A DNA stretch of 64,000 nt from contig OZ024740.1 of NCBI GenBank assembly GCA_964016885.1, positions 340,132,001-340,196,000 on the forward strand, in the 5' to 3' direction. A program made the position numbers and the translations under genes. The stretch is from Eledone cirrhosa (Eukaryota). Shown here in pieces: positions 30,041 to 39,763 of the stretch. A model generated the notes under the pieces. It worked only from the letters and a program-made list of their open reading frames with translations, made no database searches and was not told where the DNA came from. Numbering within the stretch: the stretch's first letter is position 1; each line of letters starts with the position of its first letter.

Positions 30041-30434
30041 ATACTTTGGGAGGGTCATGTTGCCAATAAGAAACACACGCACCAGTTACTTTCACTTCAA
30101 TTTATTATATATTTATAAATTTACAAATCTACAAACTTATAAATTTCTGGTTGGTTGGTTGGTTCCACAACCATATAGTTGTTTATATATAGTCATAGTC
30201 CTTTCGTCACACACTCTGTGACCTCTTCAGTGACTGGGGATTCCTTTCTTTGTTTCTGTGCCTTTCCTTTCTTCTGTCCTACGCCATTTTGTTTCTGTGT
30301 GTGTGTTGTGTGCTCAGTTTGCGCATGCGCCACATCCGGGTGTCTGTGTGTGTTTGTGTTCATTTATTTATTTATTTATTTATGTTCATTTACTTATAAA
30401 CAAATAAACAAATAAACAAATAGATAAATGAACA

Positions 30435-30531: not shown

Positions 30532-32991
30532 AGAACGGGGAAAAACGAATAATACGTCATTAATAGGAGCGGTGAAAAACAATTACGCGCAAAGACAAAA
30601 CCACGTTTATGGTATAAAAGAGGTCGTAGACTAATGTTCTCTTAGGTGGTGCATAGAGACGTTCTCTGGCAATGAACGAAAAAACGAAGATAATAAGTCA
30701 TATGTGGAGCGTGGAGAACAATAGCACGCAAAGACAAAACCACGTAAATGGTATAGCAGAAATCGTAGACTAAAATTCTAACTAGGAGACCAAATGAATC
30801 TCCGCTACAGAGTTAAGAACAAAGTAAATAAATACAATACAGAAGTAATAGGAACAAATAAATACATACACGCAAACAGATACGTACATACACAAGCATA
30901 CGCAAAACCTTACCATGGGTATACAAAACCACGCACATATAAATATGTGTGTGTGTGTATGCTTGTGTACAAATAAATAAATAATTATATAAACGTATAT
31001 AAGTAAATAAATACGTATATAACAAGCGCACACGCATACCTACATATAAATACACGAATGTTCGGAGACGTAAGTCAACTAAAACAAGAAGTACACGTAT
31101 ACGCACACCCACCATACGTACGAACATGCACACTCACGCGGACGCAAAACTCCCGTATACACATAGCCAAACCCTAAATACCAGAATATGTAAAAATTAT
31201 ACGCTATAACAGTCAAATATACGTACGAGAAGGTATACATACCTTCACAAAACATACGGGTAATATATACTTACCTATGCAAATACGTAAAGGAATAAAC
31301 AAAACATATACTTAGCTCCCACATCAAGACGTAAAATATCCACGTATAGATCGTGCTATCCGTTAAGGTATAACGTGGGGCTGTAATACAGGAAAGTTTT
31401 GTGCAATTTATGTTTACAAGCCGAAATTGCCTCAGATTTTTTGTTTAAGATGTGGTCTGTAGCGTAGAGTATTTCCAGGGCCTCAGCGGCGCAGAGGTCA
31501 CATGGTCTTTTATTTCCGTTATACGATCTAGCCCTAGCTAGGATCTCCCAGTGTAACTTATATTGGGTGTGGTTGCCTTTTAGACTCCAGATATAAGCTG
31601 AAAGTGACGTCATATTCCTTCTTAGAGGGTAACGAAAAGAATGGGTATGCATGTAAAGACGCTGCTTGAAACTATTGGCGGTTAACCCTATGTAGGCCCT
31701 ACGGGACGTGGGTGTTACAACCTTACATTTGTAGACAATGTTACTAGAGAGGCATTTCCCGGATAGGGGGCAATCAGCCCGATTCCTACAATTACAGTTA
31801 GTACTACCTACAGGGTTGCACGTGTTCCTACGGCTAGGTAGTTTAGCTAAATTTGAAGCTGTGATGTTATGTGCAAGGTTAGGAGTCGTAGAGTAAGAAA
31901 TTTTAATAGTATTTCTATTAAAAATTTTACTATATTTATGTGTAGGGGGAAAATGCTTCGTAATAAGGGAAAGAAAGATCTTAGCTAATGGTGTGGCCAC
32001 CTCCATATTATATGGTGGGTTAAACCAACAAATGCGACGGGATCTATTTCTTCTAGGTCTATTTTCGTACACTGTATATGCTACCTTATCGACAAATCCA
32101 CTTCGAGCAAGAGCTTCATTGTAATAAGTGGAATGGTCGTTGAAAATGCGCTCGTTGGTGGAAAGACGGGAAAGCCTCAACGAAACGTTTCTTACCAGGT
32201 TCTTGGTTATGCTGGCAGGATGGTTGGAATGCTTACTTATGTAATTAAGCGTATCATTCGGCTTTCTATACGGGTAATACAACCCATTCAATAAATTGAG
32301 GGTAACGTCGAGGTAATTAACGACCGAGAGATTGGCCTCAACCTGTATAGAGAGGTTGAAGCCTTTAAAGAAGGCTGTGAGTTCTTTTCTGAACCTGTCG
32401 CAAGCACGAGGTCCGCACTTAGTCATGGTCAAAAGACCATCGTCACGGTACAAACCACCGCCCGCGTTGGGGAATTCGTCCTTGATAGAGAAAAGAAGGA
32501 AAAGGCCAATAAGATCAGTAACCTCCGCAGAGTCACTGGCGCCCATACTCACGTCGAATGGGGTACTATTGGATTTTTTAATCCAAATAGAGTCGTCGAA
32601 ATTAATCACCGACTTTCGGGCATTAAGGATGACATCAACTTCAAAATCCTTAACCACTGTGAGTGTTTTAGCGAAATTGATAGCTCTAAGGAGAAGTTGT
32701 AAAGTGATGGAGGAGTAGTAATTGTTGATGTCGAATTGGATAAAACGGCAATGTTCCTTGTTACATATGCCGTTGAACCAATCAATCACCGCGAAAGAAT
32801 TGTTCCACAGTGCGAGAGGGGCCAAACTTCTAATTTCAGGTATAATTCTATCAAGAATCGTTTTACTAAGTCTACCTAAATCGGACTTCGTAGGGTTAAT
32901 AAGCCGAATAGAGGGGTTGTTCGGAAAATTGGATTTGTGATCCTTCAGGGTAAAGTGGGGAGAGATAGGGTCCAGAGGTTCGGTCCGGTCA
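30532..32991 (-). mobile_element. Naiad-like PLE, 5'-truncated, 3' UTR cut before its hammerhead
   Basis: Contains the ORF below; UTR matches 18,150-18,970. Confidence 0.92.
31356..32991 (-). CDS. PLE RT + GIY-YIG, Naiad-like; uninterrupted but N-terminally truncated
   Basis: LKDHK..RLINP, QFDI, MGA, YRDDG, YLD, WFNPP, CNCRxxxxCPLxGxC, VY..YIG, CDLC; clade assigned from recalled motifs. Confidence 0.88.
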
Positions 32992-33008
32992 TATACATAT
33001 ATATATAC

Positions 33009-33056
<48 letters not shown>

Positions 33057-33060
<4 letters not shown>

Positions 33061-34500
33061 TCATCATCATCATCATCATCATCATCGTTTAACGTCCGTG
33101 TTCCACGCTTGCATGGGTTTGGACGGAGGGTTTTCCCACTTGAGGCAAGAGTGGTTATCTTGCTCGCATAGGACTATCTGGCGGGTTTTCTACAGCTGGA
33201 TGCCCTTCCTAACACCAACCACATTTACAGTGTGGGGCTGGGAGGTTTTTACCGTGTTGCCTACACGGCCACATTACAGCGTGAACTGTGTGTTTTTTTG
33301 ACGTGACACCTACACGATCTCATTTGTTTCGGCCTGGATGTTGTGGCACCAACATAACTTTACATTGAAAGGGGCGGTGTGGATGGGGTGGGGGTGGTGG
33401 GACGGGGGTGTATTTTGTTAGAGATGCCTACTGACTGTAGTAGGTTTTACTTTGTATTTAGGTAAGGCGGGTCTTCTCTATTACTGAGTACCGCCAAAGG
33501 TCTCGGTCCAGTGACATTGTCTTGGAGAGGTGTAAGTGTGTGAGGTCGGAATTTATCAGCTCGTCCCAGGTTTTTCTGGGTCTGCCTATTCCGTGGCTAC
33601 CGTCTATCTTTATTGCCCTGCACTTTGTTATACAGCTATCGTCCTTCATGCGCATCACGTGACCATACCAACGTAGCCTTCTCTCAGGTAAACAACATCT
33701 GATCCCTCTTATTTCTAATTTTTTTCTTAGTTCGTTTATGCTTTGCCGTTCACGTATATTACTATTACACATCCAGCGGAGCATGCAAGCTTCATTTCTT
33801 TCTAGTCTGCGTATATCCTCTGCACACAATGCCCAGGTCTCACTGCCATGCAACATTGCTGTTCGTATGCAGGCATCGTACAACCTGCCTTTCATTTTTA
33901 GGGAGAACCCTTTAGCGGCTAATAGTGGTATGAGGTCTCTGAACTTTTTCCACCCAGTTCTGACTCTAGCTACTGTACTTTCAGAGCACCCTCCCCCACT
34001 GCTGATTTTGTCACCCAGGTAACGGAAGCTGTCCACTATTTCTATAGAACCCTCTGCGCAGTTGAAAGAGCTAGTATTTTTGGGGCACTTGCTGCTACTT
34101 ATTGCCCCAGAACACCGGCCACATGTAAAATCTATGTTCTTAGTTAGCTTACCTGTGATCCCACTACATCTTTTATGCACCCAAACTTTGCATTTGGGAC
34201 ATAAAATGGAGTTTCTACCTACGCCTTTCCTACACTCTGAGCATGGCCACTTCCCGGAGGGGACCGCCGCCTTATTTTCTTTCTTACAAACTAGAACTTT
34301 AGTCTTAGCCAGGTTAATTTTAAGGCCTTTTGATTCTAGGCCGTGCTTCCATGTTTGGAATTTCTTCTCTAGCTCGGCCATTGATTCAGCTATGAGCGTT
34401 AGATCATCTGCGTATAGGAGTTCCCATGGGCAGCCGGTCTTGAACTCCACTGTTATAGCCTGGAGGGCAATAATAAATAGTAGGGGGCTAAGAACAGAGC
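33057..34500 (-). mobile_element. RTE-PHD LINE, 5'-truncated, frame intact 34,500-33,458
   Basis: SVLSPLLF..YADD..PHD..FRYLG; (GAT)n tail. Confidence 0.93.
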
Positions 34501-34510
34501 ATATATATAT

Positions 34511-35140
34511 AGTGTATATAGTGTATTTTGCATATATACATATATATATAGTGTGTATTTTGCAATACACTGTATGCTTAATTAAAAGCATTTCGAAGAC
34601 CTTATGCTATTGTTTTAGAGTAGTGACAGTCTCACCTACTTTAAATTTTCAGCAAACAGGGGAGATAAAGCTGACAGAGCTGTGTTTCGTACTGATTGGT
34701 ACTTATCAAAGCCAAGTACTCCACCTGTTTGCTGAAAATCATGAATGTTTGATTCTTATAGAATTTCTAGTAATAATCAGGAACTAAAACAATAGCATAA
34801 GGTCTTCAAATGCTTTTAATTAAGCATACAGTGTATTGCAAAATACACTATATATACATTCATATATATATCGCTATTTCAGAGCGCCAATTCTAATTTT
34901 TAATTTCTGCTTGACCGGCAATCGCTCTGTATAATCAGTTCCTGATTATTACTAGAAATTCTATAAGAATCAAACATTCATGATTTTCAGCAATCAGGTG
35001 GAGTACTTGGCTTTGATAAGTACCAATCAGTACAAAACATAGCTCTGTCAGCTTTAACTCCCCTGTTTGCTGAAAATTTAAAGTGAGACTGTCACTACTC
35101 TAAAACAATAGCATAAGGTCTTCGAAATGCTTTTAATTAA
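34511..35140. mobile_element. Non-coding inverted-arm element built from a 316-nt repeating unit
   Basis: TAAAACAATAGCATAAGGTCTTC at 34,785 and 35,101; 34,578-34,785 is the reverse complement of 34,937-35,140. Confidence 0.75.
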
Positions 35141-36508: not shown

Positions 36509-36601
<93 letters not shown>

Positions 36602-36672
36602 GTATATATGTATATATATATTTATATATGTATATATATATATATATGTATATATGTATATATATATATTTA

Positions 36673-36731
<59 letters not shown>

Positions 36732-36734
36732 GTA

Positions 36735-36769
<35 letters not shown>

Positions 36770-36844
36770 GTGTGTGTATATGTATATATATATATATATG
36801 TGTATATATATATATATGTATATATAACTATATATGTATGTATA

Positions 36845-36928
<84 letters not shown>

Positions 36929-36971
36929 CATATATATATATGTGTGTTTATATATATATATATATATATAT

Positions 36972-38020
36972 ATTATGAAGAGAGAAGAAACATTTAGATA
37001 TAATTAGTAATAAAATGTATCATACCTAAACTGCTCCTAAATTCCTCGACTACGTAGTTTCGTGGCATAAACAAAAACAATATATCATAAAGATATAGAG
37101 TCTCTGCGAGGTCTGCCGACTTATCAAGAGGATACCTCATTTTACTAGTCTCAAGAACGCGTCTACACGACGTGAGAAAGAATCCCAAAAGGCGGAGGGG
37201 GAGATAGTCACGCGATATAACGGTCGAGAAACAGAGCTAAGCCTCTTATAACCCCGAAGAAAATACCACGGAGGCGGAGGGGGTATTTATATCGAGGCCG
37301 TAGAAGAGGTGGTGAAGAAGGCGAGAAGTATGAGTAATGGAAGCTTTCCAGCTGTCCCCACACTTCAAAGATTGCTCGACCAGAGGGAGTTATTAACAAT
37401 ATATTTAGAAACACACAGATACATGCGGACACACACATATATACATGAATGCATCCGCACCCAACTGTGAGTTAAGGGTGCCAACTTCACCGATGTTGCT
37501 CAATGAATGACTGGGACAGACCAATTCAGTTGAACTAGACTGAACCAGTATCCGTGGTATTTTCTTCGGGGTTATAAGAGGCTTAGCTCTGTTTCTCGAC
37601 CGTTATATCGCGTGACTATCTCCCCCTCCGCCTTTTGGGATTCTTTCTCACGTCGTGTAGACGCGTTCTTGAGACTAGTAAAATGAGGTATCCTCTTGAT
37701 AAGTCGGCAGACCTCGCAGGAACTCTATATCTTTATGATATATTGTTTTTGTTTATGCCACGAAACTACGTAGTCGAGGAATTTAGGAGCAGTTTAGGTA
37801 TGATACATTTTATTACTAATTATATCTAAATGTTTCTTCTCTCTTCATAATGTATTTTTAACTCTGATACTGGTTCAGTCTAGTTCAACTGAATTGGTCT
37901 GTCCCAGTCATTCATTGAGCAACATCGGTGAAGTTGGCACCCTTAACTCACAGTTGGGTGCGGATGCATTCATGTATATATGTGTGTGTCCGCATGTATC
38001 TGTGTGTTTCTAAATATATT
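36972..38020. mobile_element. Non-coding two-arm element from a circularly permuted ~595-nt unit
   Basis: 36,972-37,272 = rc(37,551-37,851); 37,398-37,552 = rc(37,866-38,020). Confidence 0.88.
37691..37780 (+). ncRNA. Hammerhead, C3U/G8A core, extended stem II, GUC site (inverted copy 37,043-37,132)
   Basis: TCCTC TTGATAA GTcGGCA..TATATC tttat GATATA..TGCCAC GAAA CTACGTAG TC GAGGA. Confidence 0.82.
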
Positions 38021-38047
38021 ATATATATATATATGTATATATATATG

Positions 38048-38224
<177 letters not shown>

Positions 38225-38246
38225 GTATATATGTATGTATATATAC

Positions 38247-38330
<84 letters not shown>

Positions 38331-39048: not shown

Positions 39049-39763
39049 CGAACAGCAATGTATCCGAACAGCAATGTTACATGGTAGTGAGACCTGGGCA
39101 CTGTCTGTGGAAGACTTGCGTAGATTAGAAAGAAACGAAGCCTGCATGCTCTGATGGATGTGTAATAGTAATATACGCAAACGGCAAAGCATAAATGAAT
39201 TGAGAGAGAGACTGAGCATAAGAGGAATCAAATGCTGTGTGCAAGAGAGGAGGTTGCGTTGGTATGGACATGTGATGCATATGAAGGATGACAGCTGCAT
39301 AAAAAGGTGCAGAGCACTAGAAGTCGATGAAAACCATGGAGTGGGGAGACCCAAGAAGACCTGGGATGAGTTGATAAAAGCCGACCTTACCCAATTACAC
39401 CTCTCAAGAGCGATGACACACAACCGTGACATCTGGCATCACGCAGTAATACAGAGTACCCGACCCTCCTACAGGTAGAAGCCGAAGCTGAAGCATATAG
39501 ACAATATGCCCCCACCCTCTCCCACTGCAAGGTGGTTGTGGAGGTGCCACGGCAAAAAAAGCACCCAGCCCACACTGTAAAGTGGACGTGTAGGCGCCAC
39601 GGAATAAAAGCACCCGGCACTCACTGTAAATGAGGTTGGTATTAGGAAGGGCATCCAGCTGTAGAAATCAAGCCAGAGTCAGTTCCCGTATGAGCAAGGC
39701 ATGGTCAGCTGACCGGCTACTGCCCACAACAGGACAACCCATCTAACCCATGCTAGCGTGGGT
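39049..39763 (+). mobile_element. RTE subfamily 2, decayed 3' part
   Basis: LHGSETW..WYGHV..GRPKKTW; UTR matches 1652-1790. Confidence 0.88.

Follow-up and report, generated by a model that had tools for sequence, protein, structure and literature searches.

The window (the whole stretch of 64,000 nucleotides analyzed here, positions 340,132,001 to 340,196,000 of contig OZ024740.1 of Eledone cirrhosa) contains at positions 36972-38020 a two-armed, head-to-head copy of a non-coding 595-nt unit that lies between two (TA)n runs. With the unit numbered from position 37551 (u1), the features of this copy are as follows:

36512-36973, no strand: left (TA)n target run (TRF)
36968-36972, minus strand: site A of the window copy (u301-305), outer 3' end of the left arm and putative reverse-transcription start (arm-end counts)
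36972-37552, minus strand: left arm, Y-Z-X, from u316 round to u301-305, 585 nt with its TA-merged end, 3' end at site A (self-BLAST, end mapping)
37043-37132, minus strand: left-arm type I U3-A8 hammerhead, the reverse complement of that in the right arm, with its predicted cut between 37048 and 37047 (self-alignment; motif scan)
37273-37397, minus strand: segment Z (u471-595), left arm only (self-alignment)
37286-37291, minus strand: TATAAA (u577-582), not conserved in the family (34 scored insertions)
37551-37552, no strand: inversion junction of two 5'-truncated arms, with a 2-nt overlap (self-alignment)
37551-38020, plus strand: right arm, X-s-Y, u1-470, 3' end at site B (self-BLAST, end mapping)
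37691-37780, plus strand: right-arm type I U3-A8 hammerhead, predicted cut after 37775 (motif and pairing scan)
Parts of the right-arm hammerhead, plus strand: stem I 37691-37695/37776-37780; core 37696-37702; stem II domain 37703-37761; GAAA 37762-37765; GUC 37773-37775 (motif and pairing scan)
37852-38020, plus strand: 165-nt "tail" (s-Y) from site A to site B; site A (37851-37855) is read through here (arm-end mapping)
38019-38020, plus strand: site B, outer 3' end of the right arm and putative second reverse-transcription start (arm-end counts)
38014-38327, no strand: right (TA)n target run (TRF)

Self-BLAST of the window aligns segment X of the right arm (37551-37855, plus strand) with 37272-36968 of the minus strand at 302 of 305 positions and segment Y (37866-38020, plus strand) with 37552-37398 of the minus strand at all 155 positions (155/155). 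Segment s is found only in the right arm and segment Z only in the left, so neither arm can have been copied from the other, and, because each arm has a piece that is unique to it, the template must have been a tandem or circular X-s-Y-Z. Two start sites on such a repeating template yield exactly the circular permutation that the arms display. A preliminary description, made from the letters of the window, had read the arms in the same way, as circular permutations of one 595-nt unit of which neither is a copy of the other, both stopping at AT-rich points that merge into (TA)n; self-BLAST and the two flanking runs (36512-36973 and 38014-38327) agree with that reading. The tandem or circular template that it had deduced, and had proposed to look for as tandem arrays, has its counterpart elsewhere in the genome, where tandem units occur with an exact 595-nt spacing on C5 and C2 and as more than 20 consecutive copies on C1. 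As the window copy has one hammerhead per arm, it cannot itself release a monomer by double cleavage. Its 165-nt tail is predicted to fold into two long hairpins. Its two arms also differ from each other by G>A at two adjacent positions, one per arm (37720-37721 and the inverted partner, L001:1670-1671).

The hammerhead consists of a 5-bp stem I, the core UUGAUAA (U3-A8), a stem II domain of 59 nt, GAAA, a palindromic stem III and GUC, and the motif and pairing scan thereby confirmed the U3-A8 hammerhead with a stem II of about 59 nt and a GUC site described before. It is absent from the Rfam output, which holds 0 hits at the gathering score and, by E-value, only weak miRNA-type hits. The core and the 5' strand of stem I (u141-152), which lay outside the query used to collect the copies, show 3 letter differences over 199 copies, while other regions vary by 1-2%, and the same letters are invariant in copies of 78-93% overall identity. 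This conservation suggests that the hammerhead is under selection. Covariation is weak in the hammerhead, where 0 of 28 pairs show double changes, as well as in the tail hairpins, where 2 of 60 pairs do and the rest are one-sided G-U changes. The monomer is strongly self-paired (z = -7.0; 0 of 100 shuffles were equally stable), G and C make up 249 of its 595 nt, and 64% of it is paired as a predicted circle. In this predicted circle the hammerhead is folded off, with its 3' half pairing with site A, and the active fold costs 8 kcal/mol.

Neither a protein-coding frame nor an LTR pair was found in the unit, and stop-free frames that lie wholly inside it are at most 87 aa long, which upholds the earlier statement that it contains no credible ORF. 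The preliminary reading as a retrozyme is supported, but two epithets of that description are not. The unit is not particularly "large," as 595 nt falls inside the range of 51-972 bp given in a recent account (preprint 10.64898/2026.07.22.740005), though it is above the 170-400 nt given in another (PMC7229834); nor is "promoter-carrying" supported, as the 34 scored insertions of a position-ordered sample have TATGAA in 21 cases, TATAAA in 11 and other letters in 2. A promoter scan remained at chance level (3 versus 2.7), and its model is bacterial and irrelevant to an animal host. The unit does not qualify as a plant-type LTR retrozyme, which has a type III hammerhead in paired LTRs, since its hammerhead is of type I and in tandem units, nor as an autonomous Penelope-like element, since a frame for RT plus GIY-YIG is missing.

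In the 3.0-Gb genome, a 21-nt core piece has 7,545 matches, and the reversed control pattern has 0. Given that the first 100 core matches form 50 clusters, we estimate that the family comprises 3,000-4,000 insertions. Two samples were drawn: 48 loci chosen by similarity to the window copy, which are biased to the 595-nt subfamily and to a complete X-s-Y or Z, and 47 loci in positional order along C1, where three more clusters were already in the first sample. After exclusion of L152, which is diverged and unparsable, 94 loci with 148 arms were analyzed; also excluded were the second copy of the duplicated L103, a diverged short arm at L136 and, at L104, two short pieces from the interior, and the long C1 array was left out of the variant counts. 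In the position-ordered sample, 591 is the commonest unit spacing (20 of 32 spacings) and 23 of 68 arms cross at least two cut sites; the commoner subfamily has units of 591 nt and that of the window units of 595 nt. Older subfamilies at 72-90% identity are represented by L172, L152, L144, L138, and L136:4273-4570, and of these L172, L144, and L138 end at the same A or B, which points to more than one wave of activity. At L103 (G000:C1:19617501-19627000), a two-armed insertion is present twice, 2,554 nt apart, as a local or an assembly duplication.

Family-wide, site A covers u301-308 and site B u467-476, 165 nt apart. The 3' ends of the 148 arms from the 94 loci fall at A in 70 cases, at B in 72 and elsewhere in 6, and 139 of the 142 A or B ends enter (TA)n. 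Among the two-armed head-to-head insertions, 47 of 52 combine one A end with one B end; one is A+A, with one arm lacking a TA flank, none is B+B and four have one atypical end. All classifiable pairs of the position-ordered sample are A+B (19/19, p = 2e-6). Single arms end at A (19), at B (23) or elsewhere (2). Genome-wide, there are at least 2,485 exact junctions of an A end with (TA)n, and 1,045 junctions of a B end with (TA)n on the forward strand alone, the reverse count being inflated by a variable gap. The 5' ends of the arms are scattered, with short overlaps at 35 of the 52 head-to-head junctions, and a target-site duplication cannot be delimited, because the insertion ends merge with (TA)n. 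The AT-rich stops seen in the window are putative start sites, fixed family-wide and used one per arm, which the preliminary description had not recognized, and they point to Penelope-type machinery. Inverted 5'-truncated arms, a tail of 30-40 bp at one end and a bias to (TA)n are features of Penelope-like elements (PMC8557442). In vitro, the protein of one such element, a predicted dimer, cleaves both strands and extends each of them, and the tail is the stretch between two internal start sites (PMC11167929). We therefore regard it as highly likely that the family is a non-autonomous Penelope-type element.

Simple TA microhomology as the cause of A and B was rejected, as the TA-like stretches u174-193, u262-276, and u421-431 took at most one end. 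A helix between A and B is predicted by the fold of the alignment as well as by local folds of u296-480 and of u226-480 (10.5 expected pairs in each), but it is absent in the circle, where it would cost 7.8 kcal/mol, as well as in the most diverged copy and in the young Penelope-like family N1 described below, and it shows no compensatory changes. Such pairing is also partly trivial, since both sites resemble the self-complementary (TA)n, and the helix is kept only as an idea.

Differences between copies amount to 0.35% within an arm and 0.34% between the arms of one insertion, compared with 2.4% between insertions. Of 132 sites with family variants, 124 have the same letter in both arms and 8 do not, compared with an agreement of 8% for arms paired at random. 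Both arms of an insertion thus very probably derive from one template or source. At positions covered at least twice, variants shared by all units number 264, those confined to one unit 183 and those in some units 5, a count that has limited power as a test for mosaic templates, because with two covering copies "one unit" is the same as "some units." Among the insertions in which an arm reaches 1,120 nt or more (23 cases), 19 distinct all-unit haplotypes are present, which implies that variants new to a single unit are repeatedly transmitted to every unit of the next insertion. A monomer circle would give such single-unit passage directly, while a linear multimer would need its own uniform source array for each haplotype. 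Based on these sequence patterns, and on the passage of 136 of the 148 arms across the predicted cut site with no indel near it in 247 copies, we propose that the template was probably a circular monomer.

On the ribozyme strand, A>G sites exceed T>C sites (25 versus 13, p = 7e-4, with polarity set by the majority letter only), as is expected after passage through an editable RNA. RNA-editing scars were also sought among the private all-unit variants and rejected there, as these comprise 7 A>G and 9 T>C and so favour neither strand. The unit also occurs as contigs in six runs of unrecorded kind, four of which were aligned with it, and no RNA record was listed as containing it. In low-depth contigs of run X5 (L002:1113-1767), A>G is found at 38 places and T>C at 14, with up to 34 changes in 218 nt; these changes look like hyper-editing of double-stranded RNA and, as the kind of run is not on record, are not counted as evidence. 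Nor is a 620-nt contig that goes round the unit, which comes from one of these runs and is equally compatible with a tandem array and a circle.

The longest arms in which no block pattern is seen have 4-5 units (up to 4.9). A longer arm is found at G000:C1:193981004-194001325 (L091-L093), a two-armed insertion of 4.5 and 29.6 units, and in the 29.6-unit arm the variants recur in higher-order blocks, 4 and 6 units long. The blocks show that this array grew by duplication after insertion, and they rule it out as proof of long rolling-circle synthesis; it is a retrozyme turning into a satellite.

The strongest competitor of the monomer circle retains the same twin priming at A and B by Penelope machinery and makes the template a linear, uncleaved multimer of a tandem source array, with the hammerhead a passenger or acting later. 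It would fit the excess of arm 5' ends at u1-35 (12 versus 4.5 expected, p = 0.002 uncorrected and about 0.04 after 17 bins), which is what an RT that reaches the start of a linear transcript would leave and which counts against a circle. In vitro, moreover, the uncleaved RNA of an anole element is the main substrate and its hammerhead is dispensable (PMC11167929), and 8 of 9 predicted Xenopus retrozymes did not cleave (preprint 10.64898/2026.07.22.740005); together with the hammerhead predicted to be off in the full fold, these results also speak against a circle, and long arrays exist that might serve as sources. However, with a linear multimer each of the haplotypes, at least 19 in number, would need a source array of its own with uniform units, and the sole long array examined is a mosaic of unit variants. 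Arrays copied in this manner could only shorten over generations, the variants in some but not all units number 5, of which only one (L113) is a single copy in each arm, and the core is strongly conserved. On balance, a linear multimer appears unlikely as the template, though it deserves to be taken seriously.

Cleaved linear monomers could also have been the templates if the RT jumped from end to end and so joined them into multimers. Uniform units would then be expected provided that the monomers came from one locus, and the arms do cross the predicted cut site (136 of 148). The wider bin around the cut, u211-245, contains 6 5' ends against 2.2 expected (p = 0.025, uncorrected). Against such jumping, no indel is found at u215-235 in 247 copies, and 5' ends are not enriched at the cut itself (u221-231: 1 versus 0.68 expected), so that we consider it very unlikely.

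As possible sources of the mobilizing protein, the genome contains 10,597 GIY-YIG candidates; the 40 loci examined sort into several families. One of them, N1 (L041 = G000:C1:145868001-145877900, L042, and L177-L201), has a frame for RT plus GIY-YIG with a CxxC motif before the GIY-YIG, a trait of Neptune and Nematis (PMC8557442), and by its frame and this motif it appears Neptune-like. N1 has 146 top hits at 97-100% identity, many of them with 775-codon frames, and a minimal U3-A8 hammerhead with 6,153 exact copies. At 25 loci it is found in (TA)n, its copies end either 82 or 150 nt past the cut (a tail of 68 nt), and 7 of 8 two-armed copies pair A with B. The distance from the cut to A is 82 nt in N1 and 80 nt in the retrozyme, and the seven letters before site B are identical in both. 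Between the retrozyme unit and N1 no DNA similarity beyond chance was detected (score 24, shuffle mean 25), and among the matches listed for the unit against 40 of the 10,597 GIY-YIG candidates only a low-complexity TG stretch is shared. At least six other Penelope-like families are present in the genome, one of which is older and also has a U3-A8-like core. The missing homology, the 68-nt tail of N1 and these other families count against N1 as the partner, and we consider its role possible rather than probable.

At L145:1760-2950 (G000:C1:23439306-23446917), a retrozyme arm of 1.8 units joins a tiny two-armed N1 pseudo-LTR fragment via a short shared T-rich stretch. It is the one unit-N1 join among 44 unpaired 5' flanks and may reflect a template switch or a later insertion beside an N1 end, which makes it a hint only. 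Near position 1182 of L002, a single contig end of run X6 appears to join the antisense strand of the unit to letters that resemble the N1 pseudo-LTR.

Alternatively, the arms might come from the pseudo-LTRs of a long Penelope element with a coding frame, as fragments whose 5' truncation stopped short of that frame, and the preliminary description had named as its own refutation that they occur only as the ends of such an element. Hammerhead, tail and inversion are indeed pseudo-LTR features (PMC8557442), N1 leaves many short two-armed pseudo-LTR fragments, and with 94 of an estimated 3,000-4,000 loci examined a rare coding parent may exist. In the 94 loci, however, no coding join was found: tblastn with five query proteins and inspection of the 44 unpaired flanks revealed no arm whose 5' end runs into a Penelope frame, every 5' end abutting the partner arm or flanking DNA. 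In the nearest case, L098, a Penelope frame is separated from the arm by (TA)n and unrelated DNA. The arms, in addition, stay within the 595-nt sequence for up to 4.9 units. As a general origin, truncation of a coding element is refuted, and we regard it as highly improbable. The idea of a satellite that spread at the DNA level with fold-back inversions, or of a misassembly at (TA)n runs, may practically be dismissed: the long C1 array did grow by DNA duplication and (TA)n is hard to assemble, but thousands of dispersed loci have identical polarized ends and random 5' ends, the A/B end rule refutes it, the arms are permutations rather than mirror images, and the unit is present in contigs of independent runs.

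The window also contains protein-like frames near the retrozyme copy. A stop-free frame of 605 codons at 31356-33173 (minus strand), whose first ~60 codons are repeats, has 21-23% identity to Penelope RT/endonuclease (E 8e-7 to 1e-4) and no Pfam hit; by this weak protein likeness it is assigned to a distinct, putatively Penelope-like family. Downstream of it, near 30,200, a hammerhead-like motif with a canonical core precedes (TA)n. An LINE-type RT fragment with a PHD-like finger is found at 33458-34606 (minus strand), and a similar-looking fragment lies to the right of the retrozyme copy (~39060-39460, plus strand).

Taken together, the window copy is best explained as a member of a young, high-copy, non-coding family of hammerhead non-LTR retrozymes (591-595 nt) that is likely to be inserted by a Penelope-like RT/GIY-YIG protein priming both (TA)n break ends on one RNA, probably a monomer circle, and we hold this explanation as a whole to be the probable one. 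The unit itself is found in tandem with a conserved type I hammerhead. Its transcripts with two or more hammerheads would self-cleave and ligate into a monomer circle, as described for other retrozymes (PMC7229834). A dimeric Penelope protein would then cut both (TA)n strands and start cDNA synthesis at the internal sites A and B (cf. PMC11167929). The observed pattern is that one strand starts from A and the other from B, each for a variable run of up to ~5 units through the hammerhead junction, with the two 5' ends joined head to head via short overlaps; loss of one arm would leave a single-armed A or B copy. The weakest step is the last, in which the mobilizer would be the young Neptune-like family N1 (example L041/L042).

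Neither the class of the element, nor its U3-A8 core, nor its size is new. With the metazoan non-LTR retrozymes (PMC7229834; preprint 10.64898/2026.07.22.740005), in so far as these sources cover them, the family shares a unit that is non-coding, arranged in tandem and equipped with a single type I hammerhead whose stem III is palindromic, a GC content below 50%, a self-paired fold, thousands of copies with mostly few units per locus, and a size within 51-972 bp. It differs from them in its U3-A8 core with a 59-nt stem II domain and in its fixed A and B ends, their pairing one per arm and its (TA)n targeting, none of which was found in the portions of these two accounts covered here. Its hammerhead is also predicted to be blocked in the circle, in contrast to most animal retrozymes (PMC7229834). 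With Penelope-like elements (PMC8557442; PMC11167929) it has in common, by the portions of these papers covered here, two internal starts, a one-ended tail, an inverted 5'-truncated arm, an AT-rich or (TA)n target and a hammerhead upstream of the starts, whereas it has no coding frame and its arms have multiple units. The tail of 165 nt is 4-5 times longer than the published 30-40 bp (PMC8557442), compared with 68 nt in N1, and the two strands use one start each (47 of 52), whereas no strand difference in start site is reported in vitro (PMC11167929).

Two further groups are comparable on the basis of the cited passages. The hammerheads of the Schistosoma Penelope elements Cercyon (PMC4209133) share the covariation of the U3-A8 core and are found on opposite strands 100-700 bp apart, but they are minimal and mostly single, while the hammerhead described here has a 5-bp stem I, a long stem II and a tandem unit. 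Chlamys elements such as MRC1 (PMC8557442) are likewise non-autonomous and Penelope-type and form multicopy head-to-tail insertions; unlike the present family, which has a hammerhead and no detected partner homology, their 3' end resembles the autonomous partner and they belong to a clade without canonical hammerheads. To the best of our knowledge, based on the open-access full-text literature exclusive of supplements, Repbase and Dfam, the rule of one start per arm, the 165-nt tail and haplotype evidence for single-unit copying have no precedent, and an anonymous entry for the family may exist in Repbase or Dfam.

Penelope mobilization and rolling-circle copying of retrozymes have been proposed from co-occurrence and from pseudo-LTR phylogeny (PMC7229834; preprint 10.64898/2026.07.22.740005), and by these accounts the return of animal retrozymes to DNA has hitherto been argued from co-occurrence and pseudo-LTR similarity. 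The family described here bears the Penelope footprint of two start sites on thousands of very young insertions, and its rule of one start per arm constrains the mechanism of integration. The retrozyme and the young candidate enzyme N1, which occur in one genome, provide a defined substrate and enzyme with which rolling-circle target-primed reverse transcription could be tested in vitro. In its most specific form, which we put only just short of an even chance, our proposal is that a dimeric Neptune-type RT/endonuclease would carry out two-directional rolling-circle target-primed reverse transcription on a single circular RNA of ~595 nt, with a different start site for each half of the dimer; the fold of the RNA, not homology to the autonomous element, would bring the two sites together across the 165 nt between them. 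If this is true, each two-armed insertion would be a direct genomic record of the retrotransposition of a circular RNA and of the origin of the Penelope tail.
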